Assembly: GCA_030390025.1 (NCBI GenBank)
Contig: CM059431.1
Coordinates: 94,614,001-94,678,000 of the forward strand
Length of the DNA: 64,000 nucleotides
Source: Squalus acanthias
Taxonomy: Eukaryota
Reading direction: 5' to 3'
In this document: in pieces, positions 1,181-63,380 of the stretch
How the letters are laid out: each line of letters starts with the position of its first letter
How positions within the stretch are numbered: position 1 is the first letter of the stretch
The notes under the pieces: generated by a model
What the model saw: only the letters and a program-made list of their open reading frames with translations
Told to the model about the DNA's origin: nothing
The model's database searches: none
Made by a program: the position numbers and the translations under genes

Positions 1181-3366
1181 ATGGGGGCTGCACTTATTGG
1201 GGGCGTCGTCCTGCGCCTGCAGATTCGGAGGCAACAGAGACGCAGAGAGAGAGTGGCAATCATGGCCAGACGGAATGGGCCAACAGGCCTCTGTACAGGA
1301 GACCTTACCCTCCCAGGTTATTTCGCCAACAATTGAGTGAGGAGGACATAAAAAACCTGCAAGGGGACATAGACAGGCTAAGTAAGTGGGCAGAGATTTG
1401 GCAGATGGAATACAACACTGGAAAGTGTGAGGTGATGCACTTTGGCAGGAAAAATCCTAGAGCAATTTATTATCTTAATGGCAAGAAACTGGAGAGTACT
1501 GAAGTGCAAAGGGATCTGGGGGTCCTGGTGCACGAAACTCAAAAGGTTAGTATGCAGGTGCAGCAAGTGATTAAGAAGGCAAATGGAATGTTGGCTTTCA
1601 TTGCTAGGGGGATAGAATATAAAAATAGGGAGGTATTGCTTCAGTTGTACAAGGTATTGGTGAGACCGCACCTGGAATACTGCATACAGTTTTGGTGTCC
1701 TTACTTAAGGAAAGACATCCTTGCTCTCGAGGCAGTGCAAAAAAGGTTCACTCGGTTAATCCCGGGGATGAGGGGGTGGTCATATGAGGAGAGGTTGGGT
1801 AGATTGGGACTCTACTCATTGGAGTTCAGAAGAATGAGAGGCGATCTTATTGAAACATATAAGATTGTGAAGGGGTTGGATCGGGTGGATGCGGGGAGGA
1901 TGTTCCCGATGACGGGTGAGACTAGAACTAGGGGACATAGTCTTAGAATAAGGGGCTGCTCTTTCAAAACTGAGATGAGGAGGAACTACTTCACTCAGAG
2001 GGTGGTAGGTCCATGGAATATGCTGCCACAAAAAGCTGTAGAAGCTACATCATTAAATAAATTTAAAACAGAAATAGACAGTTTCCTAGAAGTAAAGGGC
2101 ATTAAGGGTTACGGGGAGCGGGCAGGAATTTGGACATGAGTCTAGGTTCGGATCGGTCATAGCCCTGTGGGTAGTGGAGCGGGCCCAGGGACCGTGTAGC
2201 CTGATTCTGCTCCTATTTCGTGTGTGCAATTCTGTTAGATGCAGGAGATGGTTCTGTGATAGATAGTAGATTGGCGGTTAGGATCAGATCAGCCATGATC
2301 TTATTGAATGGCGGAGCAGGCTCGAGGGGCCGATTGGCCTACTCCTGCTCCTATTTCTTATGTTCTTATGTTCTCCTACATTAATTTGTCTGAGGAGCAG
2401 TGTTTGCGCAGGCTGCGCTTCAGCAAGGAGGTGGTCACTGAGCTCTGCCACCTGCTGCAGCCAGATCTGCAGCCTCAACTGAGGACCAGGACATCTCTGT
2501 CGGTGGCAGTGAAGGTCACAGTGGCTCTGAACTTTTATGCCACTGGCTCCTTTCAAGCAGCTATTGGGGACATCGCCAATATCTCCCAGTTCATGGTCCA
2601 TTGCTGCATCCGTCAGGTCACAAATGCCCTCTATAAAAGGAGACGCCAGTACATCTCTTTCCCGCTGACCCGGGCCAAACAGCATGAACGCGCATTGGGC
2701 TTTGCGAGGATAGCGGGCTTCCCCATGGTGCAGGGCCCCATTGACTGCGTGCATGTGGCATTGCGTGCACCGCATGAGAATGCAGAGGATTTCCGCAACT
2801 GCAAGGGGTTCCACTCTTTAAACGTCCAGTTGGTCTGTGACCACAGACAGCTGATACTCGCTGTCAATGCCCACTATCCTGGCAGCAGCCACGATGCTTT
2901 CATCCTGCGCCAGACTGCTGTGCCAGAACTTTTCCAGGCACCACATCAGCCAAGTGGTTGGCTCCTTTGGGACAGGGGTTATCCACTGTGCACCTGGCTG
3001 ATGACACTGCTCCGTAACCCCAACACCCCTGCCGAGCTGCGATACAACGAGAGCCATCTCGCCACCAGGAACATCGTTGAGCAGACAATCGGCGTGCTCA
3101 AGCAACGGTTCCGTTGTCTGGACCACTCAGGAGGAGCCCTGCAGTACTCGCCTGAGTGAGTCTCCCTCTTCATAGTTGTGTGCTGCATGCTGCATAACCT
3201 GGCAATCCTCAGGACCCAGCCAATGCCACCAGGCCTTGGAGCACCACCGGAGGAGGAGGAGGAAGAGGAGGAGGATGATCAGCAGCAGCACCAAGGCGGG
3301 AGGGAGGCCCACAATGTTGAAACTGCAAGGGCCGTCCGTCAATGGCTGATAGCAAGCTGCTTCTAG
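1181..3366 (+). pseudogene. Harbinger (HARBI1-like) DDE transposase, disrupted
   Basis: N-terminus at 1181-1334 (..RRPYPPRLFRQQ, frameshifted) resumes at ~2371 (FSYINLSEEQCLRRLRFSKE). Motifs IDCVH, GSSHDAFIL, DRGYP, RNIVEQTIGVLKQRFRCLD and CCMLHN are present. Lesions are a CR1 insertion and an in-frame TGA at 3157-3159. Confidence 0.92.
1335..2372 (+). mobile_element. 5'-truncated CR1 LINE (RT C-terminus and 3' UTR) inserted into the transposase
   Basis: ORF 1168..2139 switches to CR1 RT motifs (LQGDIDRL, RPHLEYC, RRMRGDLIETYK) and ends in a ...CTCCTATTTCTTATGTTCT tail. Confidence 0.93.
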
Positions 3367-4441: not shown

Positions 4442-6312
4442 CTACTTTTTGCCCTTCGAGGGTGATCTCCTTCCATTGCGCACTTCCCCCCTTCCCACCC
4501 TCCTGCTCCTCCGTAATGGGGGCCCAGTTGCTGCAGCAAGGCTGGTGGAAGGCTGCTGATTGTCAGAACCCGAGACTGCAGATGCCCTTGAAGGACGGCC
4601 TCGACCAGCTCTGGGCCTGGAGGGCCCGGCTGCAGACTGCACCAACTCTGCATGGGCGGCAGCAGTCTGTCCTACAGGCGGTGGCAAGTGCAATGGGTAA
4701 GTGACAGTGGTGGCAGCAGGAATGCTGTCATCGTGAGAGAGGACAGCAACTCCCTGCTCGACCGACACACTGGCACGCCCACAGGGCAGCACATCAGCAT
4801 CCGGAGCAATCTGCTGGAGCACAGATTGCTGGCCTGCTGCGGCGCGGTGAGAGCCCCGGGGAAATGTGTCCGGACCAGCGACAATGACAGCAGTCAGTGC
4901 TTGCGTGGATTCAATCTGAGTCTGCATGAGAGCAGTCAGAGATGGGGTCACGGCAACCAGTGACTGAATTGCAGCACTAAGCATTTGCGTGGCATCCGCC
5001 TGTGCTACATCGAAGTGCTCCACCCTCCTTGCCAGTGATTCAATGCATTCGGGCACCCTTCCCACTGCACCCATGAGCTGAGTGTGCATGTCCACCGCCT
5101 GGGTGTTCATTTTAGCGATCAGCCGCTCCTCCTCTGCGTCCATTGCAGTAGGACTCGCTGGCCTACTCTCCCTCCGGGGAGAAGGCCCCCGAGCTTTCCT
5201 ACCCCCATCGCGTTGCTGCAGCCCGCTGGGTCCCGGAGCTTCACCCTCATCAGACCCTTCCCCCCTGCTCCCCTCCAGGGAAGGCGTGTTCCCAGTGTGG
5301 GCATGGGCTTCCTCGGGAGAGGGTGGCGCTGATGCTGCGGCTTCATCTTCCTCCTCGCCTGCAGCATCACTCCCACTGGGAGCTTGAGGGCCCGTCTCCT
5401 CAGCTGGTGAATCACCATCTGAAAGCAGGCAGGTACAAGAGTGGCTTTAGCGTGAGGACAGGGGGCAGTAAGGGAGGAATGAGTGCAGCGATTTAGTAAG
5501 TTGGATTGAAAGTGTCAAAGGCTGGTGTTGTGAGGGACAAGTGGAAGGAGAGAGGACAAAAAGGTGATGACCTTACCATTGCTGTCCAGAACGGGGTCGG
5601 CGTCTCCAGGGGCGACGGGACCGATCACCTGGCTTGCCACAATCCTGTGGACGCGCGCCTCAAGATCGCTGAGGGGTTGTAGCTGAGGCCGCCCTCCACC
5701 TGTCCGTTGCTGCTGTCTCCTATTATGAGATAGCTTGACCTGAACAAAAAGGACGGCTTCTGAATAAATATACAGCCATGGTCTTGCCTCATGTGCCTCC
5801 CATAATTGAATAGCCCTTACTGTATCCAGCCATGGTCTTGCCTGCTGTGCCTCCGATAGTTGAATAGCCCTTACTGTATGCAGCCATGGTCTTGTCTGAT
5901 GTGCCTCCCATAGGTGAATAGCCCTTACTGTATGCAAAGTGTGGAATGTGCGTGTGTGTTTCATGAGAGGGCAATAGGTGTTGGATGAGTGTTGGGCATT
6001 GGGGTTTTAAGACCCTCTGGCCATAGAGTGAGGTTAAGATGGAGGGATGGAGAGGTATTGAAAAAAGCCACTCACACTGACGCCCCGAGTGAGGTCGTTG
6101 AACTTTTTGCGACATTGAGTATGGGTCCTGGGCACCATGCTCCTGGAGTAGACGTGCTGAGCCACCTCCCTCCACACTCTTCTGTACTTGTGCGGCAAAG
6201 GCCTCCTGCCACTCTCAGAGTAGAGTATAGATCTTCTGCGCTCCACCGCGCCAACCAGAGCATCCAAGGCCCGCTCGCTGAAGCGCTGAGCTCGTTCTCT
6301 CACCCTCTCCAT
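4442..6312 (-). CDS. Harbinger Myb/SANT-like DNA-binding protein, 3 exons (6312-6076, 5739-5577, 5418-4442), 458 aa
   Basis: Exon 1 encodes RAQRFSERALDALV...W..VA...RT..QCRKKFNDL. Both introns are GT-AG with matching phases (0, then 1). The joined frame is open for 1377 nt and runs into ORF 4442..5143. Confidence 0.82.
5773..5934. repeat. 54-bp tandem repeat x3 in Myb gene intron 1
   Basis: CAGCCATGGTCTTG...GCCCTTACTGTAT units start at 5773, 5827 and 5881. Confidence 0.9.
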
Positions 6313-6656
6313 AGTCCTTGGCTGGAAGATTAAGGCACAGGTCTCTCCAGGCCGAGATTCAAGGCTCCAATGAGCAGGGTGTGGCTGGAGTGCAAGATCG
6401 ACCCTTCCCTTTAAGAACTGTCCGGCGCCAGTGTGTCTGTGTTCCATCGCTAACTGACATCACCTGCGCTGCGCCCGCACTCTGAGTTAGCGCCTCGCTC
6501 CTCGGCCTTTGCGCCTTAAAACAGGTGTGCAGCGCCTGATTTAGCGCTCCAATCACCTCCAGGGGCAATAAAAGCCAAGTTTGCAGTTGGAGGCGATAAA
6601 CTTTGCGCCCGGCCGATAATCACGCCCCAAACTGGCCGATACTGAATTTTTCCCTC

Positions 6657-23179: not shown

Positions 23180-24988
23180 TGAGCTTCAAAGAAGTGACTC
23201 GACACAATGCTGAATAACTATGAAAGCATGCTCACAGACAGTTATGAGGGCATCACTGGGTATGATGTGCATATCCGCATCAAGTCCAACGCTAAGCCTG
23301 TCTATTGTAAGGCAAGGCCGGCCCCCTATGCATTGAAAAGTCAGGTGGAGGAAGAGCTAGCGAAGCTCAGAGAGAACGGAGTGCTAGTAAAAACTGACAA
23401 AAGTGAATGGGCTACCCCGATTGTGGTAGTGCCCAAAGCAGGCAAAACTGTACGCTTGTGCGGTGACTACAAAGTTACTACCAACCAAGCAGTTGACGAT
23501 GAGCAGCACCCGTTACCTACATCACAAGATTTGTATACAGCACTCTCTGGGTCAAAGGTTTTCTCCAAGCTTGACCTGTCGCATGCTTACACTCAGCCGA
23601 ATGTTGGCAAAGAGAGTCAACAGTATCTCACCATCAACACACACAAGGGACTGTACTCATACACCAAGCTGCCGTATGGTGTAAAGTACTCCCCCAAAAT
23701 CTTCCAGGCTACGATGGATAAGATTTTGCAAGGAGTTCCAAATTGCTTACGCAATCAAGACGATGTGCTGATCGCAACAAGCAGCGAGGAAGAAAATCTA
23801 GAAGTGTTAGGTATAGTGTTTCAAAGATCGAATGCCCACAATGTCAAATTGAAAAGCCACAGAACGTGTCTGAGTTAAGATCTTTCCTTGGAATGGTCCA
23901 GCACTACGCGCATTTCTTACCTGAGTTAGCGACCATGTTAGCTCCATTGCATGAGCTCTTCAAGAAGGATGTCCAGTGGAAGTGGACGAAAGCACAACAG
24001 AAAGCTTACGACGCTTGTAAGAGAAGTCTCTCTAGTGATGCTCTACTTGTGCACTATGACACAGAGCGTGAGCTTAAGTTAGCGTGTGATGCTTCCAGCT
24101 ACGGTGTGGGAGCTGTCATAAGCCACGTAATGGATGATGGCCAAGAGAAACCAATCGCTTTCGCATCGCAAACCCTCACAAAGAGAGAAAGAAACTATGC
24201 GCAAATTGAAAAGGAAGCACTCACCATAGTGTTTGGAATCAAGAAATTTCAACAGTTCCTGATCAGCAGAAAGTTTACCCTGATAACCGATCACAACCAC
24301 TTTTAGCAATATTGGGGCCCAAATCTGCCATCAGTGTAATGGCCACATCAAGAATGCAACGTTGGGCTGTGTTGTTGTCACAATATGACGACACGATTGA
24401 ATATCGCACTTCAAAGCAAAACACAATCGCAGATGCCTTGTCCAGGTTGCCACATGAAGACTCATGTGTTGGGAGTGAAGGTGAGATTTTCACACTAGGT
24501 GCAGTTGACAAAGACTTTCCCATGAATGCAACTGAGATTGCAGATGAGACTCAAAAGAACTCAGTTCAGACTTCAGTAACTGTAGTATCAGGTTCAAACA
24601 AGTGTGAGATAGAAACAGGATCATCTTTGAGTTCGGAACCAAAACAAAACAGCCCGAAATTTGGTTCAACAGCAAAACCTTCTTTAAGGAGATCAAGAAG
24701 GCTCCGCAAACCTGTTATTAAACTGGATTTGTAGTACATTTAAAAGAAAAAAAGCCAGGAGTTTTTGTTATGTGGTACATGTAATGCTGGGAAAGGGGGG
24801 ACCATAGTTCTGTTGTATTTGAGAGGGGAATATGTACTTTTTTTAAAAGGGAAAGCAGTGTAATGTGACATGGTTTGTCACATGGTTTAGTATGAGCATG
24901 CTCAGTTCACTCTGGCCTAGTAAAGCAAGCACATGAACTAGCAACTCATCGTGTCTCTGTCCTTCAATTGTTCACCCACATATATTAC
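23180..24988 (+). mobile_element. Gypsy/Ty3 LTR retrotransposon remnant: RT-RNase H, integrase deleted, short 3' LTR (~24859-24988)
   Basis: WATPIVVV, RLCGDYK, FSKLDL, LPYGV, CDASSYGVGAV, NYAQIEKE and ADALSRL motifs. A polypurine tract AAAAGGGAAAGCAG precedes TGTAAT. Confidence 0.88.
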
Positions 24989-27455: not shown

Positions 27456-29088
27456 TGCTGTGTCCCAAGATATCACAGAATTGGCGATGAGGATGCGATT
27501 GCGGATTCCCTAGCTGAAATTTTTGTTGGAGGATAATCCTGCCAACCGACAGAGGGACTGTTGGAGGTTCTTTATTTTGCAGAAAAACGTAACAATCCGA
27601 GGTAAATTTCGAGCAGACGTGGCTGAACTGTCGACGTTGCCAGAGTCCAGATGGCTGCGCCTATGGGAATAATAGAGCACTTGGGTGAGTTCCATCATGA
27701 TCGAGAGACTTTCAGAGCGTATGTGGAGTGGCTAGAAATGTTTTTCACCGTGAATAGTATTGTTGAAGACCCAGATGATGTAAACCGTAACCAGGCGGTT
27801 TTAGAAATGAAATGGGCTTTTTTTTTTGACTGAAGCAGGCCCCGAGGTGTATGAAACCCTGAAAAATATGATTGTTCCCGCCAAGCCGAAGAACACGCCA
27901 CTGAAGGAGATCCTAACTAAGCTAGAACAGCACTACAGTCCTGAGCCCCTGGAAATTGCTGAAAGTTATCGTTTTGGAACACGCAATCAATTAAACGATG
28001 AGGATATCAGTGAGTACATTGTAGCTTTAAAAAAGCTATCCATTCACTGTCATTTCAGAAACTATCAGGGCCGAGCTTTGCATGACCGCTTTGTTTGTGG
28101 GTTGCAAAATGAACGTATCAGAAGTAAATTGTTGACAACCCCTAACTTGACTTTTGACTTAGCTTGTCAAACAGCTATGTCGGTGGATATGGCCGACCGA
28201 CACACCCGAGAGTTCCGCGCCATTTCCAGTCGTCAGACGACCGAGGTGAATCGGCAGCAGGCTAAAAGTAAAAGGCAGTTGGGCCCCAAGACCTCAGCAA
28301 CTGGCCAAGGTAACAGTGCATTGAAGTCGTGCTATTGATGCCTGGGACAAAACATCGCTTAAAGCTGTCCATATGTGAAGGCAGAGTGTTTCTATTGCAA
28401 GAAAACTGGGCATCTTGCGAAGGTGTGCCAACTGAAGAGTAAACCGACTGGCAATGCTAGAAGTAGAAATCGCCAGACACTACATACCATTGAAGAGAAG
28501 CAGCAGGACGAGGAGTTTCTGGAGATTCACGTCATCAGGAGCACGAAGGTATCTAACAGCGATTCGCGAGGTATCGTCATCCAAGCAGATGTCGCAGGAG
28601 CCAGGATACCCATGGAAAACGACATTGGTGCATCCATGAGTGTAGTACCGGAATCATTATATCGCAACAAGTTGCGTGATTATCGACTAGAGAAATCGAA
28701 GGTAGAGCTGCGAGGCTACTCAGGAGAGCAAATCCCTGTAGTCAGAAGTGTCACCATACCAGTGAAATACAAGAATCAGTGTCAGAGCTTGCCTCTCATA
28801 GTAGTGGCAGGAGACAAGCCTGCCTTGATAGGTAGAAATTGGTTGGGATCACTGAAGCTGGATTGGAATGAGATTTTTCGTGTGGAAGTGAAATTTGCAT
28901 CGAAAGATGATGTCATCAAGCTGTATCCGGAGGTGTTCAGTGAAAAGGGCAGTCCGATCCAAGACTTCAAGGCGAGTGTCAGAGTGCAGAAGGACGTAAG
29001 ACCGGTTTACTGCAAGCCAGGTCCCGTACCATATGCACTCAAGGCGAAAGTTGAGCAAGAACTCAAAAGACTAGAAACTGAGAACATT

Positions 29089-29563
29089 GGGCCAGAAATT
29101 CGGCTCTCCGGCTTCCCGCGGGTGTAAGGATCGCGCGCGTACTTACCTAGCGCGCCTACCATTGTGCTTTGGGCCCGTGTTGAATTCGGCTCCTGGGCCT
29201 CCTGCAGCTGCCGGCGCGCAGTGCTTGCATATCCCAGGGGCGCAGTTAGTTTGAAGCGTCCCCTGGGATCACGTGGGCCATGGAGAGCCAATCGGAGCAG
29301 GGAATCTTCATTCATAGATTTGACAGGAAGACCTGTCAAATCTATGAATAGAGATCGGCCCCAAAACCTCACTAAAACTTCAAATAAATTTTTTAAAAAT
29401 CACATTTTTAAAATAACTATAAATTACATAAATTAACTACCTAAACAAAAATTTTAATTTTTGAAAAAATTAATTACACTTTTTAACAGTGCTAAAAATA
29501 AACTTACCTTTCTTTAAAGTATGTAAAAAAGATAAACCTGTTGAAAAATTTTTTAAATTATAC
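29089..29563. mobile_element. Truncated GGCCC-family MITE within Gypsy pol
   Basis: Begins GGGCCAGAAATT and resembles the reverse complement of ~3890-4361. The second TIR is absent. Confidence 0.75.
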
Positions 29564-31957
29564 TGGATGCAATCAGAAATGCACCCACTCCCAAGAATGT
29601 CTCTGAACTTCGATTATTTTTGGGTCTTTTGAATTATTACGGAAAGTTCCTCCCAAACTTGGCTACATTGTTACATCCACTGAATGAGCTGTTGAGAAAA
29701 CAGGTCCCTTGGAAGTGGTCAAAAGAATGAGACACAGCATTCAAAGAGTGTAAAAGCCAGTTAGTAGAGAGTACCATGTTAGTTCACTATGATGTATCTA
29801 AGGAGATCAAGCTAGTGTGTGACGCCTCTCCGTACGGAGTTGGGGCAGTGATCGCTCATGTACTAGATAGTGGGGAGGAGAGACCAATTGCTTTTGCTTC
29901 ACGCACTGTCAGTGCCAGTGAGTGGAATTATGCGCAGATCGAAAGGGAAGCTTTGCCATTGATTTTTGGGGTCAAGAAGTTTCACAAATACTTGTTTGGT
30001 CGTAAGTTTACCATAGTAAGCCCGACAGCAATCCTCCAACCAAAGTCCCCAGTTCTAACCTTAGCTGTAGCCTGAATGCAGAGATGGGCTTTGATTTTGT
30101 CAGCGTATACGTATGACATTGAGTACAGACGATCAGCTGATCACAGTAATGCTGATGCTATGTCCAGGTTGCTATCCCCATCACAAGTTACACCCAATAA
30201 GGAAGAAGTGTTCTTTTTCTCCTACATTGATGAGTTGCCAGTCACAGCTGAAGAGATTGGTATGGCAACCAAACGTGACCCAATTATGTCAAAGGTGTAT
30301 GATTACATAGCAAATGGATGGCCAAACCAGGTATCAGAGGAAGATGTCCATCCATACTTCGCTCGTAGGAATGAATTGTCAGTGGATAATGATTGTATCA
30401 TGTAGGGAGCAAGTGTGGTTATCCCAAATAGGTTCAGGTCCAAATTGTTAGGAGATCTTCATGACCAGCACCTGGGAATGTGCTTGACCAAGAGCTTTGC
30501 ATGCAGTTACTTATGGTGGCCAGGTTTAGATAAAGAGATAGAGTACATAGTCAGTCAGTGTACAACATGTCAATTGGTGAGCAAGAAACCACCATCAGTA
30601 CCATTACAGCCATGGAGATGGCCTCCCAGAGTGTGGCAAAGTTTAGCTGTAGATTTTGCTGAGCTAGAAGGACAGCAATTGTTCATAGTTATAGATAGTC
30701 ACTCGAAGTGGGTAGAGATGTTTCCGATGCGGATAATAACAACAAGCAAAACGCTAGACAATTTGCGAAGATTTTTTTCTTCATACAGCCTTCCAGAAGA
30801 AATTGTGTCTGATAATGGGCTTCAATTTTGTTCAGAAGAGTTCACACAGTTCATGAGCAGAAACGGTGTGAAACATACCAAAGTTAAACCGTACCACCCT
30901 GCTTCAAATGGTGCAGCAGAGCACACAGTATAAATTGTCAAATGTGCCCTCATCAAGCAAATGTTGGATCCAAATCCAAAGAAACATCAGTGGTCGTTGG
31001 ACCACAAACTGGCAAATTTTCTGATTACTCCTCATACCACTACTGGTAGGAAAGCAGCAGAGTTGTTTCTCAAACGACAGCCACGAACCAGGTTCTCGTT
31101 GTTAAAGCCAAACTTGGCACAGTCTGTAGAAGAGAAACAATCAATGCAGAAAGAGAGTCATGATAAAAGTAAAGTTAGAGAGTGAAGTGTGAAGTTGAAC
31201 CAGGAGGTTAGAGTGAAGAACCATCACCATAAATGGTTAAAGTGGTTACCAGGAAGAGTAGTGAAGATATGTGGCCCTTGCACATATTTGGTCAAGATGT
31301 TTGATCATGGAAAGGTTAGGTTTGTTCACATTGATCATATCTTACCTACAGATGTGGAAGGAGTTGAAAGATGGGATGATTCAATTTATTCTGATCAGTC
31401 AGATAGTCTTGTACAAGTCGCAAATCAGATGTACCAGAAACAAGTCCAAGACAAAGTCAGAATTTTAGCCTACTCCTGCTCCTATTTCTTATGTTCTTAT
31501 ATAAGTCTGAGCCCGAGTCAGGCAGACAAACAGTCTGAAAGTGTAAAGAGTCCAAATGTAGATCAAAGTCAGCCCTTGGAGAAAAATTCTCCGCATGCTC
31601 GGCCTAGAATAAGTCCTACAACAAGATCTGAAAGTTCTATTCAAGAAAGAAGGTATCCTCTTTGAAACAGAAAACCAGTGGTTAAGTTTAATCTGTAAAT
31701 GTGGAAAATAAGTTCATATCTTTTGTTTGTGTTATAGAATGCTATAGTAGAAGTTGGAAACATAAAATGGGTTCCATTTGAGAAATGTGTATACCATGCA
31801 AGTCATGTACAATGATTATTTGCTATGATTAACTTCTTCAATAAGGAGGGAGAAGTATAATAGCGCCACCTGGTGGACTACTGATGTATATAATAATAAA
31901 GTCATGTGCAGTACAGTTGTGCTGTTGTATACATATGCTTTGTCCCAAGATATCACA

Positions 31958-53753: not shown

Positions 53754-54083
53754 AATTAGTTTAAGCTTGTTTACAATTAGTTCAAGTTTGTATACAATTA
53801 GTTTATATTTCCTTTGCCATAGGTACACACACATATTATATGTATTATATACATGAATAAGTATGGGCATCAACATGAACATTCAACTGAATATGCAAGA
53901 TTATTATTCGAAGCAAATGTATAGACATCTGATAATATATTGATATTCATGTCCATCAATATACATGTGGCGTGTAAATTTATAAACTCCAATTTATTTT
54001 ATTTGTTCTTTAAGTGCTGCACCTGTACAGTATTTTCCTCACTCTGTTACTTTCATTTTAGGTCTGAAAGCTGGTTCTAGAAT

Positions 54084-54387
54084 ATGTCATCTGACATGAA
54101 TATGGCCAAACGTGAGATAAAATCCAAAAAATGTGAACTAATCGAGTGCCTCTCCAGTGATTCCGACTACATTTTGCAGAAAATAGACTCAAAAGAAATG
54201 CTTTTCCACCATGAATATCAGACACTCAAATATCAGCAGAACCCTGTTAAAAGGATCACAGATCTTCTTGACCTCATATTGGGAAAAGGAGAGAAAAAAT
54301 GTGAAGAGTTTATCCATGCATTGAAAGAAGTTCAAGACACTTATCCTCAACTCAAACATTTAGTACCAATCAACATTAAGAGCCAAG
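54084..54387 (+). CDS. CARD (death-fold) domain coding exon of a host gene; exon 54062-54387
   Basis: Acceptor TTTCATTTTAG ends at 54061. An in-frame TAG (54078) lies upstream of ATG 54084. Donor AAG|GTAAGA at 54388 is phase 1. The peptide ELIECLS..DYILQKIDSKEML...EY..L.....RITDLLDLILGKGEKKCEEFIHAL....YPQL fits the CARD pattern. Confidence 0.82.
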
Positions 54388-54404
54388 GTAAGAAAAGGAA
54401 TACT

Positions 54405-56675
54405 GATGTCAATGAAAAAGAATGAAATAGTTGACTCAGAGACTAGGGTACTGAATTTAAATAAAGGAAACTACGATGGTATGAGGCGCGAGTTGGGTAG
54501 GATAGATAGGGGAATGTTACTCAAAGGGTTGACGGTGGATAGGCAATGGCAAACATTCAAAGATCGCATGGATGAACTACAAAATTTGTTCATCCCTGTC
54601 TGGCATAAAAATAAAACAAAAAAGGTGACTCAACCATGGCTGACAAGGGAAATCAGGGATAGCATAAGATCCAAGGAGAGGACATATAAATTGGCCAGAA
54701 AAAGCAGTAAACCTGAGGATTGGGAGCAGTTTAGGATTCAGCAAATGAGGACAAAGGGATTAATTAAGAGGGGGAAAATAGAGTACGAGCGTAAGCTTGC
54801 AGGGAACATAAAAACTGACTGTAAAAGCTTTTATAAATATGTGAAGAGAAAAAGATTGGTGAAGTCAAGCGTAGGTCCCTTGCAGTCAGAATCAGGGGAA
54901 TTTATAATGGGGAACAAAGAAATGGCAGACCAGTTAAATATATACTTTGGCACTGTCTTCACAAAGGAGAACACAAATAACCTCCCAGAGATGTCGGGGA
55001 ACATAGGGTCTACTGAGAGGAAGGAACTGAATGAAATCAGTATTTGTAGGGAAATGGTGTTAGGAAAATTGACGGCATTAAAGGCCGATAAATCCCCAGG
55101 GCCTGATAATCTACATCCTAGGGTACTTAAGGAAGTGGCCCTAGAAATAGTAGATGCATTGCTGGTCATCTTCCAAAATTCTATAGACTCTGGAACAGTT
55201 CCCATGGATTGGAGGGTAGCTAATGTTACCCCACTGTTCAAAAAAGATGGTAAAGAAGAAACGGGGAATTATAGACCGGTAAGCCTGACATAGATTGTGG
55301 GGAAAATGCTAGAGTCCATTATAAAAGATGTAATAGCAGAGCACTTGGAAAACAGTGACAGGATTGGACAAAGTCAACATGGATTTACAAAAGGTAAATC
55401 GTGCTTGACTAATCTACTGGAATTTTTTGAGGATGCAACTGATAGAATAGATAAGGGAGAACCAATGGATGTGGTGTATTTGGACTTTCAGAAGGCTTTC
55501 GATAAGGTCCCGCATAAGAGATTAGCGTGTAAAGTTAAGGCACATGGGATTGGGGGCAAGGTACTGACTTGGATAGAGAACTGGTTGGCAGACAGGAAGC
55601 AAAGAGTTGGAATAAACGGGTCTTTTTCCGAGTGGCAGGCAGTGACTAGTGGGGTTCCGCAGGGATCGGTCCTAGGACCCCAGCTATTCACTATATATAT
55701 TAATGATCTAGACGAGGGAACTAGATGTAATATCTCCAAGTTTGCAGATGATACAAAGCTGGGTGGGCGTGTGTGCTGCGCGGAGGATGCTGAGAAACTC
55801 CAGTATGATTTGGACAGGTTGGGTGATTGGGCAGAAGCATGGCAGATGCAGTATAATGTGGATAAATGTGAGGTTATCCACTTTGGTGGCAAAAACAGAA
55901 AGGCAGATTATTATCTGAATGGCAATAGATTGGGAGAAGGGGAAGTGCAACGAGACCTGGGTGTCCTTGTGCACCAGTCGCTGAAGGTAAGCATGCAGGT
56001 ACAGCAGGCGGTTAAGAAGGCAAATGGTATGTTGGCCTTCATAACTAGCGGGTTTGAGTACAGGAACAAGGATGTCTTGCTGCAGCTGTACAGGGCCTTG
56101 GTGAGACCACACCTTGAGTATTGTGTGCAGTTTTGGTCACCTTATCTGAGGAAGGATGTTCTTGCCATGGAGGGTGTGCAGCGAAGATTCACCAGACTGA
56201 TACCTGGGATGGCAGGAATGACGTACGAGGAGAGATTGGGTTGATTGGGCTTATACTCGCTGGAGTTTAGAAGAATGAGAGGAGATCTCATTGAAACTTA
56301 TAAAATTCTAACAGGGCTAGACAGAGGATGCAGGAAGGATGTTCCCGATGGCGGGTGAGTCCAGAACAAGAGGTCACAGTCTAAAGATAAGGGGTAAGCC
56401 ATTTAGGACAGAGATGAGGAGGAATTTCTTCACCCAGAGAGTGGTGAACCTGTGGAGTTCTCTACCACAGAAGGCAGTTGAGGCCAAGTCAGTAAATATA
56501 TCCAAGAATGAGTTAGATATATTTCTTAAGGCTAAAGGTATCAAGGGATATGGGGAGAAGGCAGGGATAGGGTACGGAGTTTGGATGATCAGCCATGATC
56601 TCATCGAATGGCGGAGCAGGCTCGAGGGGCCGAATGGCCTACTCCTGCTCCTATCTTCTATGTTTCTATGTTTCT
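54405..56675 (+). mobile_element. Young 5'-truncated CR1 LINE in the CARD gene intron
   Basis: Long ORFs 54406..55293 and 55297..56244 are separated by a single stop. It ends in a TTCTATGT tail. Confidence 0.93.
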
Positions 56676-56846
56676 TCAGTAAATTCATTGACGAGGGCGA
56701 ATTGGGCTTCATTTTTTTGCTGATCGCCTGACATGTATTTGACATGACAACAATATCAGTATATTTCCCTAACTGCATTGTGTAGATGCAAACACCTGAG
56801 AAAAGGTTTGCTAAGTATTTTGCATGTAAATGGAGTTCTGTATTAT

Positions 56847-57365
56847 AACAACAACAACAATTTGTATTTATATAGCGCCTTTAACGTAGTAAAATGTCCC
56901 AAGGCCCTTCACTGGAGCATTATCAAAAAAATTTGACACCGAACCACATGAGGAGAAATTAGAACAGATGACCAAAAGCTTGGACAAAGAGGTAGATTTT
57001 AAGGAGTGTCTTAAAGGAGAAGAAAGAGGTAAAGAGGCGGAGATTCTTAGGAAGGGAATTCCTGAGCTTAGGGCTGAGGCAGCTGAAGGCACGGTCACCA
57101 ATGGTGGAGTGATTAAAATCAGGGTCGCTTAAGAGGCCAGAATTGGAGAAGCACAAAGATGAGCTCAAGTTTATGTAAGGTGAAAGATGGGAAAAAAGCC
57201 AGGAGGGAATTAGAATTGTCGAATCTAGAGGTAACAAAGGCATGAATGAGGGTTTCAGCAGCAGATGAGCAGAGGCAGGGGTGGAGTTGGGTGATGTTAC
57301 GGAGGTGGAAGTAGGTGGTCTTGGTGATGGAGCGGATATGTGGTCGGAACCTCATCTCGGGGTCA
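56847..57365 (-). mobile_element. L2 LINE 3' fragment
   Basis: FHLRNI...AAETLIHAFVTSRFD and GDRAFS peptides with a (TTG)n tail. Confidence 0.8.
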
Positions 57366-57384
57366 TGAGGTATTATAAACACAT

Positions 57385-57700
57385 GCACAGGGTGTGACTG
57401 TAACTGGTATTATAATGTGACTGGTATTATAATCACATATAAAGGGCGTGACCATAACTGCTTTATCATCACATGCAGATTTTGACTGGTATTATAATCA
57501 CATTTAAGGATGTGACTGGTACGTGTATATCGGATGTGAGTGGTATTATAATCATATAAAGGTTATGAATGGTATTATAATCATGTATACAGGGTGTGAC
57601 TAATACTGGGATTAAAATTGCATATATAGGGTGTGACAGGTGCGGGTGATTAGAATCATACATATAGTGTATGAATGATACTGGTATTATAATCACTCCA
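57385..57700. repeat. Degenerate tandem repeat (GTGTGACTGGTATTATAATCA)
   Basis: Recurring TGGTATTATAATCA motif. Confidence 0.7.
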
Positions 57701-57711
57701 CCATTGGCGAC

Positions 57712-58795
57712 CTTCAGGGAGACAGGAAGAAGAGGGTAATGGTTGATGGGTATTTTTGTGACTGGAAGGCTGTTTCCAGTGGGGTTCCGCAGGGTTCAGT
57801 ACTAGGTCCTTTGCTTTTGTGGTATATATCAACGATCTTGACTTGAATATAGGGGGTATGATTAAGAAGTTTGCAGATGAAACTAAAATTGGCTGTGTGG
57901 TTGATACTGAAGAAGGAAGCTGTAGACTGCAGGAAGATATCAATAAATTGGTCAGATGGGCAGAACAGTGGCAAATGGAATTCAATCCGGAGAAGGTGTG
58001 AGGTAATGCATTTGGGGAGGGCTAACAAGGAAAGGGAATACACATTAAATGGTAGGACACTGAGTAGTGTAGAGGAACAAAGGGACCTTGGAGTGCATGT
58101 CCACAGATCCCTGAAGGTAGCAGGCCAGGTAGATAAGGTGGTTAAGAAGGCATACGGAATGCTTGCCTTTATAGCCATGGCATAGAATACAAGAGCTGGG
58201 GGGGTTATGCTTCAACTGTATAAAACACTAATTAGGCCTTAGCTAGAGTACTGCATGCAGTTCTGGTCACCACATTACAGGAAAGATGTGATTGCACTAG
58301 AGAGGGTACAGAGGAGATTTACAAGGATGTTGCTGGGAGTAGAGAATCTTAGCTATGAGGAAAGACTGGATAGGCTGGGTCTGTTTTCCTTGGAACAGAG
58401 GAGGCTGAGGGGAGACCTTATTGAGGTGTATAAAATTATGAGGGGCATAGATAAAGTGGATAGAAAGGACCTATTTCCCTTCGCAGAGGGGTCAAAAACC
58501 AGGGGGCACAGATTTAAAGTAATTGGGGGAAGGTTTAGAGGGTATTTGAGGGGAAATTTCTTCACCCAGAGGGTTGTGGGGGTCTGGAACTCACTGCATG
58601 AAAGGGTGGTATAGGCAAGAACCCTAACCATATTTAAAAAGTACTTGGATGTGCACTTGGGATGCTCTAACCTGCAGGGCTATGGACCAAGAGCTGGGCA
58701 GTGGGATTAGGCTGGATAGCTTTTTGTTGGCCGGCGTGGACACGATGGGCCGAAATGGCCTCCTTCCGTGCTGTAACTTTCTATGATTCTATGAT
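57712..58795 (+). mobile_element. CR1 LINE 3' fragment
   Basis: RT C-terminal peptides and a TTCTATGA tail. Confidence 0.9.
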
Positions 58796-60372
58796 TTGTC
58801 GAATGCCTTTTGGAAATCCATGTACACTACGACAAATGCATTACCCTCATCAACCCTCTCTGTTACCTCATCAAAGAACTCAATCAAGTTAGTTAAATAC
58901 GATTTGCCTTTAACAAATCCATGCTGACTTTCCTTAATTAATCCACACTTGTTCAAGTGACTGTTAATTTTGTCCCTGATTACTGATTCTGGCCTGTAGT
59001 TGCTGGGATTATCTTTGCACCCTTTTTTGAACAATGGTGTAACATTTGCAATTCTCCAGTCCTCTGGTACCACACCCGTATCTAAGGAGGATTGGAATAT
59101 TATGGCCAGTACCTCCACGATTTCCTCTTCAATTCCCTCAGCATCCTATCCACTCCTGGTGACTTATCTACTTTAATTACAGCCAGCCTTTCTAACACCT
59201 CCTCTTTATCAATTTTTATCCTATCAAGTATCCCCACTACCTCCTCCATTACTATGTCTATGGCAGCATCCTCTTCCTTGGTGAAGACAGATGCAAAGTA
59301 CTCGTTTAGTAGCTCAGCCATACCCTCTGCCTCCATGCATAGGTCTCCTTTTTGGTCCCTAATTGGCCCCACCCCTACTCTTACTACTCTTTTACTATTT
59401 ATATGCCTATAGAAGACTTTTGGATTACCTTTTATGTTGGCTTCCATTCTATTCTCATACCCTCTCTTTGCCCCTCTTATTTTCTTTTTCACTTCTCCTC
59501 TGACCTTTCTATATATAGCCTGATTTTCAGATGTATTTGCAACCTGACATCTGTCAGACACGCTCTTTTTCTGCTTCATCATATTCTCTATCTGTTTCGT
59601 CATCCAGGGAGCCCCGACTTTAGTTGCCCTGCCTTTCCCCCTAGTGGGAATGTACCTCAACTGTACCTGAACTATTTCCTCTTTAAAGGCAGTCCATTAT
59701 TCTATTAAAATTTTGCTTGCCAATCTTTGATTCCAGTTTACCTGGGCCAGATCCGTTCTCATCCCACTGAAATTGGCCTTCCCCCAGTTAAACAATTTTA
59801 CTCTAGATTGCTCCCTGTCCTTTTCCATAGGTAATCTAAACCTTATGATACTATGATCCCTGTTCTCTAAATGTTCACCTATTGACACTTGCTCCACTTG
59901 ACCTATCTCATTCCCCAGAACCAGATCCAGCAATGCCTCCTCCCTCGTTGGGCTGGATACATATTGATCAAGAAAGTTATCCTGAACACTTCAGAAATTC
60001 TTCCCCTTCTCTGCCCTTTACACTATACGATCCCAGTCTATATTAGGATAGTTGAAGTCCCCCATTTTACTACTCTATAGTTCTTCCACCTCTCTGTAAT
60101 TTCTCTGCAAATTTGCTCCTCCATATCTTTCCCACTATTTGGTGGTCTATAGAATACACCTAGTAGTGTCATGGCACCTCTATTATTTCTTAACTCTAGC
60201 CATATAAATTCTATCCTAGACCCCTCCGGACATCCTCCCTCTCCAGCACTGTAACATTCTCCTTGACCAATACTGCCACACCACCTCCTATCTTTCCTTC
60301 CCTATCTTTCCTGAACACTTTATAACCAAGAATATTTAATACCCAATCCTGCCCATTTTTGAGCCAGGTCTC
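58796..60372 (-). mobile_element. CR1 LINE ORF2 fragment (endonuclease to RT start)
   Basis: ORFs 59697..59933, 59100..59660 and 58789..59118. Confidence 0.88.
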
Positions 60373-60374
60373 AG

Positions 60375-60586
60375 ATATTTAATAAAGGTATTTCAAATTA
60401 TGAAGGGATGGTACAGAGTAGATAAAAACAAAATGTTCCCAGTGATTGAGGAATCCAGAACAAGAGGACATAGATATAAGATTAAAGGTAAGAGTTTTAG
60501 AATAGAGAACAAGAGAAATGTTTTTACACAGAGGGTTGTGAGGCTATGGAATGCACGACCAAAGTTTGTGATTGAATCTAAGACCA
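60375..60586 (+). mobile_element. Short CR1 3' fragment
   Basis: SRTRGHRYK...FTQRVVRLWN peptide. Confidence 0.75.
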
Positions 60587-61256
60587 TGACCCAGAATTTC
60601 CTCACAGCTGCACCCTTCTGCCAGCGTAAGTTTGCCAGAAGTGTGGCGGAAAACTCGTTCACACAAAACAAGGACATTCTGGACCTATGTTAATTTTTAA
60701 GACTAGGTTAAACAACGATAACAGCAAGGCTCACTCAGCAACTAAAGTTCCTCGCCTTAATGGACATTGAAATCCCACTGATCTGAAGAATGTTACGCTT
60801 GTATTTATATTGTCAGAGGTAATCCTGTAAAGCACAGCAATCACTGCAGAGAGGAGCAGGGTCATCCTGAACCCAAGCACCAGAAAGGATAACATTGTTG
60901 AGGCTGCCGCAAAACACGAATTAAGGCTGAATCCATTTGTGTTAAACAAGAGACTTTTTAATCACAGCATGGTACAAAATGGCAGACTGAAAAGCTCCCA
61001 GAATTCTCTGGGTAAAACCTGAGGCCCCGCCCCCTTCTCCTTAAAGGTAAGGTGCCTTAAAGGGAAGGTGCTGGAAATTTGTCCACAGACGGAAGAGTGG
61101 ATTATGCCCGTTTTAGGTGGCGATCCGCCACAACATCCCATTCTCCAATGTAGAGATTCAAAGTACTCAATCATCAGTATCTCCATGCCACAGCTTATTA
61201 ATTGACAATTGTTGTACTTTGGTGCCACTCATTGCTCTGTACCATTGATTTTACAG

Positions 61257-61477
61257 ACTGTCAAGGTCGCCCAACGGAGATGAAAGAAACATACACAGTG
61301 GAGGCACAGCCACGGAAAATAATGACTCCTGTTCTAAATGAAACCAAGAAGAAAAAGAATTTCATAAAACTGATTCCAGCACAGGACGGTCAAGAGATCA
61401 TAACACAAGATGAGAGCGATGTTGGAATGTTCAGCTGTCTGATGCATTGTATGAGGAGTGTGACTTTCTATAAATAG
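61257..61477 (+). CDS. Candidate terminal coding exon of the CARD gene
   Basis: Acceptor ATTTTACAG ends at 61256. A phase-1 join (G|AC, Asp) enters the open frame DCQGRPTEMKE...ETKKKKNF...VTFYK* in non-repetitive sequence. Confidence 0.55.
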
Positions 61478-61889
61478 ACATTCAAGTTTTGATGAATCGT
61501 TAGCACATAGTTTACATGCTCAGGACTGCCTGGAAAAGAAATGTAAGGGCAATTAAAGTAGAGAAAAGACAGTGCTGTCTTGCTATAATGGAACAAGAAC
61601 AGGTGATGACGCAGATATCAAAGTTCATTTATCTCCTGTGGGCTGCTTAAATGCTAAGTGATGTCAAATAGTAAAAATCCCCAGAAAAACCTATTTTGCA
61701 AGTTCCTGTAAAACAATTATTGAAGACAGTCATTGCTGTGAAGAAAAATTGAAAGTTAAGGCTTGAGTTGTGAAGAATTAAACTTTTAAACAGATGGCTG
61801 TATAAAAAACAACAAAATAACTGGATATGAACAACTTAGAATCTCCATCTACTTGGCTGGATGTTATACAAAGAAAATTTGGAAATGAT

Positions 61890-63380
61890 GGGAGTAATTT
61901 TAACCTCCAAAAACGGGTGGGTTTGGGTCGGGTGGGATGTTAAAATGTGAAAAATCTGAAACCCAAACCCAACCCACCTCGAACCCAACCAATTCCGATT
62001 TTAATGGAGGCGGGACGGGAGGCCAGGCAACCAACCCGATCCCAGGGAGCAGGTCGCTCATTTAAATATTATAATGAGGCTGCATGCCTCAGATTTTATC
62101 TCTCTTCCAGCTACAGTATAATGCTGACTGAAAGGAAGATGTAAGTGCCTTTCCAGCACTGCTTGTGGGCCAGGAGAAGCAGGAGTGCTTCTACCCCGGC
62201 CTTGCAAGCAAACCTGTTTCCCACTCCATGTGATTACCCCACCCCCAGCGATTGGACTTATCCCATGACTGGACCCCCTCGCTGATCACCAACCCACCCC
62301 GCACAATCACCGACCCACCCCGTGATCACCAACCCTCCCCCACTGTGATCACCGACCCCCCCCCCCCCCCGTGATCACCAACACCCCCCGTGATCACCGA
62401 CACCCCCCGCAATCACCGACCCCCCCGTGATCACCGACCCTCCCCCAATGTGATCACCGACCCCCCCGTGATCACCGACCCTCCCCCCCCGTGATCACCG
62501 ACCCCCCCCCGCAATCACCGACCCACCCCGTGATCACTGACCCTCCCCCCCGTGATCACCGACACCCCCGTGATCACCAACTGCCCCTGCAATCCCCGAC
62601 TCTCCCCGTGATCACCGACCCTCCCCCCGTGATCACCGACCCTCCCCCCCGTGATCACCGACACCCCCCGCAATCACCGACCCCCCCGTGATCACCGACC
62701 CCGCCCCGTGATCACCGAACCCCCCCGTGATCACCGACCCTGCCCCGTGATCACCGACTCTCCCCGTGATCACCGACACTCCCCGTGATCACCAACCCCC
62801 CCCCGTGATCACCGACCCCCCCGTGATCAACAACCCTCCCCCCGTGATCACCGAGCCCCCCGTGACTACCGACCCCGCCCCGTGATCACCAACTCTCCCC
62901 GTGATCACCGACACTCCCCGTGATCACCAACCCCCCCCGTGATCACCAACCACACCCGTGATCACCGACCCCCCCATGATCAACAACCCTCCCCCCCATT
63001 ATCACCGACCCCCCCCGTGATCACCGACCACCCCCGTGATCACCGACCCCCCCCGTGATCACCGACTCTCCCCGTGATCACCGACACTCCCCGTGATCAC
63101 CAACCCCCCCCCGTGATCACCGACCCCCCAGTGATCAACAACCCTCCCCCCATGATCACCGACCCCCCCGTGATCACCGACCCCGCCCCGTGATCACCGA
63201 CTCTCCCCGTGATCACCGACACTCCCCGTGATCACCAACCCCCCCCATGATCACCAACCCCCCCCCGTGATCACCGACCCCCCCCATTATCACCGACCCC
63301 CCCCGTGATCACCGACCCCCCCCCGTGATCACCGACCCCCCCCGTGATCACCGACCCCCCACATTATCACCGACCCCCCC
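61890..63380. mobile_element. Probable Harbinger-type non-autonomous element containing a VNTR, interrupted by the LTR element
   Basis: Starts GGGAGTAATTTTAACC, matching the reverse complement of GGTTAAAATTACCCCC at ~51277-51292. The other end is not in the window. Confidence 0.5.
62281..63380. repeat. C-rich ~18-21-bp minisatellite (CCCCCCGTGATCACCGA)
   Basis: Tandem units with a GTGATCAC core and variable C-runs. Confidence 0.95.

Follow-up and report, generated by a model that had tools for sequence, protein, structure and literature searches.

What kind of protein is encoded by a CARD exon that lies in a nest of transposons? The question is raised by a stretch of 64,000 nucleotides (nt) of the Squalus acanthias genome (contig 7, positions 94,614,001-94,678,000; hereafter the window, meaning this whole stretch), for which an earlier reading of the letters (the original prediction) had put forward a two-exon gene encoding a CARD-only protein of 174 amino acids (aa). 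The window has a GC content of 0.459 and a CpG observed/expected ratio of 0.44, as in vertebrate DNA. Positions below are those of the window unless another contig is named, and genome searches covered the 3.71-Gb assembly. Our analysis points to a single-copy gene whose small product consists of one CARD and a cysteine-rich tail. As the best explanation overall we propose, with moderate confidence, that this CARD-only protein would act as a CARD-CARD adaptor or regulator at a membrane, through palmitoylated cysteines of its tail.

The gene was modelled on the plus strand. Its CARD exon begins with an untranslated part (54062..54083) behind the acceptor ttttag at 54056-54061 (ttttag/G, 54061/54062), and upstream of ATG 54084 the frame is blocked by an in-frame TAG (54078-54080). 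Coding exon 1 (54084..54387, 304 nt) comprises 101 full codons from this ATG (Met1) plus the first base of codon 102, and ends in phase 1 at a strong donor (AAG/GTAAGA after 54387). The intron (54388..61256, 6869 nt, donor GTAAGA) contains LINE (long interspersed nuclear element) fragments on both strands and ends at the acceptor gattttacag/AC (61256/61257). Coding exon 2 (61257..61474) supplies the two bases that complete the junction Asp codon, then a 72-aa tail, and is closed by the stop TAG (61475..61477). The joined coding sequence of 525 nt yields 174 aa plus stop. Every coordinate and number of the original prediction was found to be correct for this model, including the upstream stop that makes ATG 54084 the N-terminus, the good splice sites and phase-1 end of exon 1, the phase-1 join about 6.9 kb downstream into a frame open to the TAG, and a tail with a KKKK cluster and a Cys/hydrophobic end, both of which are present in exon 2.

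Homologs of exon 1 were searched for among 1.84 billion representative proteins, which returned 178 matches at E<=0.001, of which 31 reach E<=1e-10 and a single one E<=1e-30. The latter is a 163-aa protein of Callorhinchus milii (A0A4W3IWP9, P0003) with 82% identity to exon 1. A search for longer proteins led to chiPu_0001831 of Chiloscyllium punctatum (GCC23435.1, P0153), of 190 aa and 87% identity to exon 1. Over residues 8-95 the CARD is 91% identical in Chiloscyllium and 85% in Callorhinchus; the corresponding tail identities are 46% and 37%, reaching 68% and 40% over the last 25 residues. With BLASTP, exon 2 matched the P0153 tail at 47% over 66 aa (E 6e-15) and P0003 at 39% over 46 aa (E 1e-8). 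The joined product is colinear end to end with both proteins, with no unmatched block that would hint at a missing exon, and the junction Asp codon split by the intron is common to the three (KSQ-D-CQ in the window, KSP-D-DQ in Chiloscyllium, KTE-D-DQ in Callorhinchus). By sequence comparison, chiPu_0001831 and A0A4W3IWP9 are orthologues of the window gene.

The tail exon is more than a chance open frame, because the tails of these two species match it and because it is the only such place in the genome. A whole-genome six-frame search with P0153 recovered exon 1 (E 1.3e-49), exon 2 (E 1.3e-6) and no other tail, and the sole genome match of the exon 2 product was exon 2 itself. Exon 1 is also single copy, the next-best genomic CARD being 45% identical. 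The gene is one already predicted in two other cartilaginous fishes, unnamed and unstudied: the sources call the orthologues 'hypothetical', 'CARD domain-containing' or, misleadingly, 'Caspase 8', none with a described function. UniProt has the 163-aa Callorhinchus orthologue in three slightly divergent versions (A0A4W3IWP9, V9KTA3 and V9LC15); the V9-series entries of this species probably come from transcriptomes, which would amount to transcript support.

The Chiloscyllium model differs from that of the window at its N-terminus, which is 16 residues longer and comes from an upstream exon. When P0153 was aligned to the locus with tblastn, the alignment started at 54060, at P0153 residue 8, and therefore the P0153 model joins a short upstream exon at the acceptor 54062. 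In the window this reading is closed by the TAG at 54078-54080, so the upstream exon would be untranslated there. In the window, a degenerate pattern built from the N-terminal residues of the P0153 model gave 0 matches.

A locus so swamped by transposons might hold an unexpressed or decaying copy, with an open frame kept by chance. Two further observations go in this direction: no sequencing run known to be RNA is on record for exon 1 (18 runs from 5 studies contain part of the stretch, and 8 small ones are only guessed to be RNA, a result uninformative about expression), and an annotated protein of the species itself was not among the protein-search matches. However, both exons are intact and free of frameshifts and internal stops, the two splice sites are good ones, and the high CARD identities quoted above are with species that should be long diverged. 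We consider decay very unlikely, and the gene is very probably real and expressed with the two-exon structure.

Exon 1 had been described as CARD-like, and its score against the Pfam CARD family PF00619 bears this out (E 3.3e-9, residues 11-87, 37.1 bits for a gathering score of 23.9). Exon 2 matched no Pfam family. Among the sequences of solved structures, the best match was the CARD of ARC/NOL3 (4uz0, E 4.5e-6), with NOD1 at about 0.03 and ICEBERG at 0.17. The structure prediction was run on the Chiloscyllium orthologue P0153 in place of the window product, with an alignment of 54 rows. The model exhibits six helices over approximately residues 21-113, with a block-mean pLDDT (predicted local distance difference test) above 90 over approximately 21-110, forming a six-helix CARD bundle superimposable on solved CARDs; the fold matches include ARC (26-28% identity), ICEBERG and BinCARD. 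The remainder is coil, save for one helix at residues 173-185 over the Cys-rich motif, with a pLDDT of about 62. In the ESM Atlas the nearest clusters are named BCL10 at 0.88, under the bar of 0.9, which we retain as a lead only.

The CARD exon could alternatively open a larger gene, for an NLR, a caspase, a kinase or a death-domain adaptor, that extends beyond the region examined, with the tail as an alternative terminal exon. Many CARD exons of this genome do belong to larger genes, such as the contig-5 paralogue checked, which is followed by NACHT, and an internal GT exists at 61449 in exon 2. We looked for such domains with tblastn, using 15 relatives with caspase, death, NACHT, FIIND or URGCP domains as queries against the window and the 100 kb past its end (164 kb). 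Matches were confined to the CARD exon, plus the tail exon when an orthologue was the query. Neither the 54 kb upstream nor the 100 kb beyond the end of the window yielded an exon for a caspase, NACHT, death, FIIND or URGCP domain. The search had its own positive control, since at the contig-5 paralogue it recovered a NACHT exon (38% identity over 560 aa) less than 2 kb behind the CARD. Genome-wide, a CARD-caspase query (P0026) found caspase-domain matches on other contigs and far off on contig 3, and none near the locus. Among 72 open reading frames (ORFs; mostly plus strand, at least 110 aa) in the next 100 kb, only transposon families were detected, save for Ig V-set and C2-set exons, which are the next plus-strand host exons and belong to another type of gene; kinases were covered through these ORFs only, a weak test that short kinase exons would escape.

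Moreover, both orthologue models end after the same tail at the same stop, which the alignments place within one residue of that of the window. The conservation of the stop in three species speaks for a protein that ends at TAG 61475-61477, and since no further effector-domain exon was found in the 164 kb, we conclude that it is CARD-only; a larger gene is extremely improbable. The claim of the original prediction that the protein has no catalytic or NACHT domain agrees with these searches and with the length of the orthologues, 163 to 190 aa. Nor did we detect any globular domain beyond the CARD, exon 2 lacking a Pfam family and the tail being modelled as coil and one short helix.

How old is the family? 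A maximum-likelihood tree was built from 197 CARD segments (search matches and own-genome paralogues), with few columns and many unresolved forks. It places the window, Chiloscyllium and Callorhinchus CARDs in one clade with a support of 98 (SH-aLRT, Shimodaira-Hasegawa-like approximate likelihood ratio test). Its sister clade, at SH-aLRT 89, comprises A0A8C4RG57 of the bichir Erpetoichthys, the 183-aa protein P0177 of the sturgeon Acipenser sinensis and a Logan-derived protein. The P0177 CARD is 52% identical to that of the window and is followed by a colinear Cys tail, in which three islands occur in the same order: a basic-hydrophobic one (KSKHVFVRLP in P0177, KKKKNFIKLIP in the window), an acidic one and a Cys-rich end (DEGMLFCLAQCFCWKSRTVT in P0177, DVGMFSCLMHCMRSVT in the window). 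The family therefore probably extends to ray-finned fishes (sturgeon and bichir). This extension is only probable because exon 2 matches the P0177 tail weakly (E 0.002 in one comparison) and because NCBI labels the P0177 record UNVERIFIED_CONTAM. The gene had been proposed to be lineage-specific to chondrichthyans, a claim that is not supported, given a sturgeon-labelled protein with this CARD and a Cys tail and a bichir fragment that groups with it. The sequences rather suggest an old fish orthogroup, with sharks, a chimaera and probably sturgeon and bichir. In the literature searched, we found no description of a family combining a CARD and a Cys tail.

The tail combines a basic KKKK cluster, a patch of acidic residues and a hydrophobic end rich in Cys (GMFSCLMHCMR), and terminates GMFSCLMHCMRSVTFYK. 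Its 73 aa include 11 Lys or Arg, 10 Asp or Glu and 3 Cys, with 4 Pro and 6 Glu. Comparison of the tail ends of the window (DESDVGMFSCLMHCMRSVTFYK), Chiloscyllium (DETNFGMFSCLMDCMRTVTFRKL) and Callorhinchus (EDDSGIFSWLWCCMRHGDQFK) reveals the common motif G[MI]FS[CW]L..CMR. In all four species, sturgeon P0177 included, 2 to 3 Cys lie in the hydrophobic run and are followed by Arg/Lys. In the window the run is about 10 residues long (GMFSCLMHCM), the helix predicted in P0153 covers 13 residues and the polybasic cluster is located about 30 residues upstream. A span of the bilayer is excluded, because the hydrophobic run has only about 10 residues. A short hydrophobic run with Cys, followed by Arg/Lys and accompanied by a polybasic cluster, is the usual context of an S-palmitoylated membrane anchor. 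The stretch L-W-C-C-M-R of the Callorhinchus tail resembles the palmitoylated N-terminus of GAP-43, a likeness that serves as a lead only. A lipid anchor is predicted from these features, tentatively and with somewhat less than even confidence.

A lone CARD works by homotypic CARD-CARD contacts, and either nucleates or bridges an oligomer, as an adaptor, or caps or sequesters one, as a decoy. We propose that the protein comprises an N-terminal six-helix CARD, a flexible charged linker of about 55 aa and a C-terminal hydrophobic Cys-rich helix. The CARD would make homotypic contacts with that of another protein. The tail Cys, embedded in a hydrophobic stretch that precedes basic residues and lies downstream of the polybasic cluster, would be S-palmitoylated, and the CARD thus presented at a membrane would nucleate or block the assembly of a CARD signalling complex. 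That the protein acts through CARD-CARD binding is a prediction we make with good confidence; it may do so either as an inhibitor or as a positive adaptor. CARD19/BinCARD and MAVS are tethered by a transmembrane helix of about 20 residues, whereas the shorter hydrophobic run of the window tail would need lipidation, and no sequence relationship between the tails was seen. By analogy, a membrane-tethered CARD would parallel CARD19, MAVS and the architecture of lamprey proteins in which a TNFR cysteine-rich region accompanies several CARDs. These receptor-like TNFR_c6 and multi-CARD proteins are among the closest relatives, which we counted in favour of the membrane.

The same architecture, a CARD and a non-globular tail, could also belong to a soluble cytosolic decoy of the kind of CARD16/17/18 or ARC, which would cap or sequester the CARD of a caspase or adaptor while the tail served in stability or turnover. 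Its best solved relative by sequence is ARC, an apoptosis repressor, and ICEBERG and BinCARD are among the fold matches. However, conservation in the tail is strongest in the hydrophobic Cys-rich helix and the basic residues after it, which persist from chimaera to shark and probably to sturgeon, and a tail that is a mere spacer is disfavoured because a spacer would not be expected to keep such a helix. CARD16, CARD17 and CARD18 (COP, INCA and ICEBERG) arose by recent duplication of the caspase-1 CARD and lie next to the gene for caspase-1. The window protein is like them in having a CARD and no other globular domain, but its gene is old and does not adjoin a caspase gene, and the ICEBERG similarity is weak (E 0.17, as above). 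The window CARD is not caspase-1-like, nor is the protein demonstrably directed at caspase-1, and the nearest named CARDs are those of casp20, zgc:174906 and si:dkey-10c21.1. As for ARC, its CARD is the best match among solved structures, but fish CARDs are far closer (35-55%), and the C-terminal region of ARC is Pro/Glu-rich, unlike the mixed-charge window tail with its Cys-rich end. Overall we regard a soluble decoy as rather unlikely.

Several points weigh against a membrane-bound CARD-CARD adaptor or regulator, our preferred explanation, or against the gene model and family on which it is built. The junction 54387>61257 is predicted from sequence. The protein collections yielded no more than two orthologues, which leaves few species to speak for conservation; the bichir protein A0A8C4RG57 is a 106-aa fragment without the tail, and the sturgeon record carries the weak tail match and the contamination label already mentioned. 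Palmitoylation of the tail is predicted from its sequence context, and the tail helix is modelled at the low pLDDT given above. Finally, casp20, whose CARD is the most similar among teleost caspases, is reported in a passage of PMC5965869 to be missing from shark, and no such CARD was found beside the caspase-8-like matches in this genome.

The prodomain CARD of teleost caspase-20 ranks with the most similar of the named CARDs (P0026, Chanos casp20, 45% identity). Caspase-20 differs in having a caspase-8-like protease domain, while no caspase exon is present at the window locus. Passages of PMC5965869 and PMC2779465 describe CARD-casp8/casp20 as fish-specific and as undetected in shark, lamprey and gar.

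What is known of CARD-only regulators comes mainly from primates, where they are young offshoots of caspase-1. An old and strongly conserved CARD-only gene with a conserved Cys tail in cartilaginous fishes would point to an early and independent origin of small CARD regulators. The locus offers a handle on shark death-fold signalling, whose partners and pathways are largely unmapped, and a clean gene model in a transposon-rich region where automated annotation may miss genes. The conserved tail motif constitutes a concrete testable hypothesis, and the Cys-rich tail and the age of the family merit follow-up. A broader scenario, which we consider speculative and doubtful, would make this an ancient lipid-anchored CARD-only family pre-dating the split of cartilaginous and ray-finned fishes, with the CARD on the cytosolic face of a membrane as a platform or brake for CARD signalling; tetrapods would have lost the family, and teleosts would have either lost it or remodelled it. 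It would be a functional parallel to the lamprey TNFR-multi-CARD receptors, and the same CARD lineage may have supplied the caspase-20 prodomain.

The CARD subtype is shared by proteins of various architectures: teleost si:dkey-10c21.1 (two CARDs), zgc:174906 (CARD and death domain) and the prodomain of caspase-20/CARD-casp8, as well as sturgeon NLRs, URGCP-GTPase proteins and the lamprey proteins that unite several CARDs with a TNFR cysteine-rich region. We scanned the domains of 59 of the 64 matches of at least 230 aa, and detected Peptidase_C14 in 11, TNFR_c6 in 9, Death in 4, URGCP in 3 and NACHT in 1. The 9 lamprey proteins (P0004, P0008, P0011, P0031 and others) carry three to six CARDs of the subtype together with their TNFR cysteine-rich region, an unusual receptor-like architecture, and are all named 'uncharacterized'. 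The si:dkey-10c21.1 proteins and Callorhinchus LOC103176519 (K4FY77, 248 aa) have the same CARD subtype at 35-46% identity, and are uncharacterised and fish-only; they have two CARDs and no Cys tail, whereas the window protein has one CARD and a Cys tail. This two-CARD paralogue (K4FY77 / AFK11037.1 / NP_001279292.1) aligns over its full length with some teleost proteins named si:dkey-10c21.1 (E 1e-32). In a passage of Tan et al. (2012, PMC3466250), the full-length complementary DNA JX052809 from elephant-shark intestine is said to have a CARD, with zebrafish si:dkey-10c21.1 given as its orthologue, and its gene is placed among four 'ancient genes lost in tetrapods'. We considered JX052809 as expression evidence for the orthologue and dropped it: it cannot be assigned to the orthologue because the 248-aa two-CARD paralogue, from which it may well derive, matches the description at least as well.

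Other CARDs were located in the Squalus genome itself. The closest paralogue CARD (45% identity) lies on contig 3 at 14,509,593-14,509,838, minus strand, and groups with a support of 99 with Callorhinchus LOC103176519, whose two CARDs differ from each other. Neither a caspase nor a death-domain exon turned up over the 50 kb downstream of it, and its second CARD exon was not located. On contig 5, two CARD exons of identical score lie about 130 kb apart in opposite orientation (60,305,532, minus; 60,435,114, plus). The minus copy, the only one checked, is that of the positive control, and its large NACHT exon within 2 kb is matched by a sturgeon NLR over the 560 aa. The arrangement suggests an inverted duplicate pair of CARD-NLR genes. 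At least 12 near-identical CARD exons, 21-25% identical to the query, occur in arrays on contigs 21, 3389, 378 and 3703; they tree with the CARDs of URGCP-type GTPases, which suggests a locally expanded CARD-GTPase family.

The surroundings of the gene were examined by scanning 149 of the 155 window ORFs of at least 95 aa, the 6 left out being all of 95-97 aa. A Pfam family was detected at E<=0.001 in 20 of the 149: the CARD in 1, transposon families (RVT_1, Exo_endo_phos, RNase H, integrase, DDE_Tnp_4 and Myb/SANT) in 17, and matches below their own cutoffs in 2. The transposon nest of the original prediction is thus readily recognized. Inside the intron lie a LINE reverse transcriptase (55294-56241, plus strand, RVT_1 E 4.7e-28) and, from the ORF scan, reverse transcriptase/endonuclease-like ORFs with LINE-type motifs at 57762-58611 (plus) and 58792-60301 (minus). 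Elsewhere in the window we identified a Harbinger-type DDE_Tnp_4 ORF (2308-3156, plus), a Myb/SANT ORF (6037-6459, minus), a Gypsy-type reverse transcriptase-RNase H piece (23198-24303, plus) and further Gypsy-type pieces at 28363-30930 (plus), with RNase H and integrase at 29731-30930.

On the 3' side of the gene, a candidate poly(A) signal ATTAAA is located at 61552..61557 on the plus strand, 75 nt after the stop (a consensus match only), and a pattern scan gave a second ATTAAA candidate at 61777. Immediately 3' of the gene, at 62431-62688, is a short ORF of proline-rich repeats (PRDHR/PVITDPPP units). Farther along contig 7, approximately 33.6-37.9 kb past the window end, a 4-kb simple repeat (L014:3600-7900) is open in all six frames, which read Arg/Glu or Pro/Ser/Leu. 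It is followed on the plus strand by an Ig V-set exon about 58 kb past the window end (L016:7932-8537, E 7.5e-12) and a CD80-like C2-set exon at about 73 kb (L018:2400-2762, E 6.1e-15). Together, the two exons resemble an immunoglobulin-superfamily gene of the nectin/B7 type, the next host gene downstream and a possible synteny anchor.

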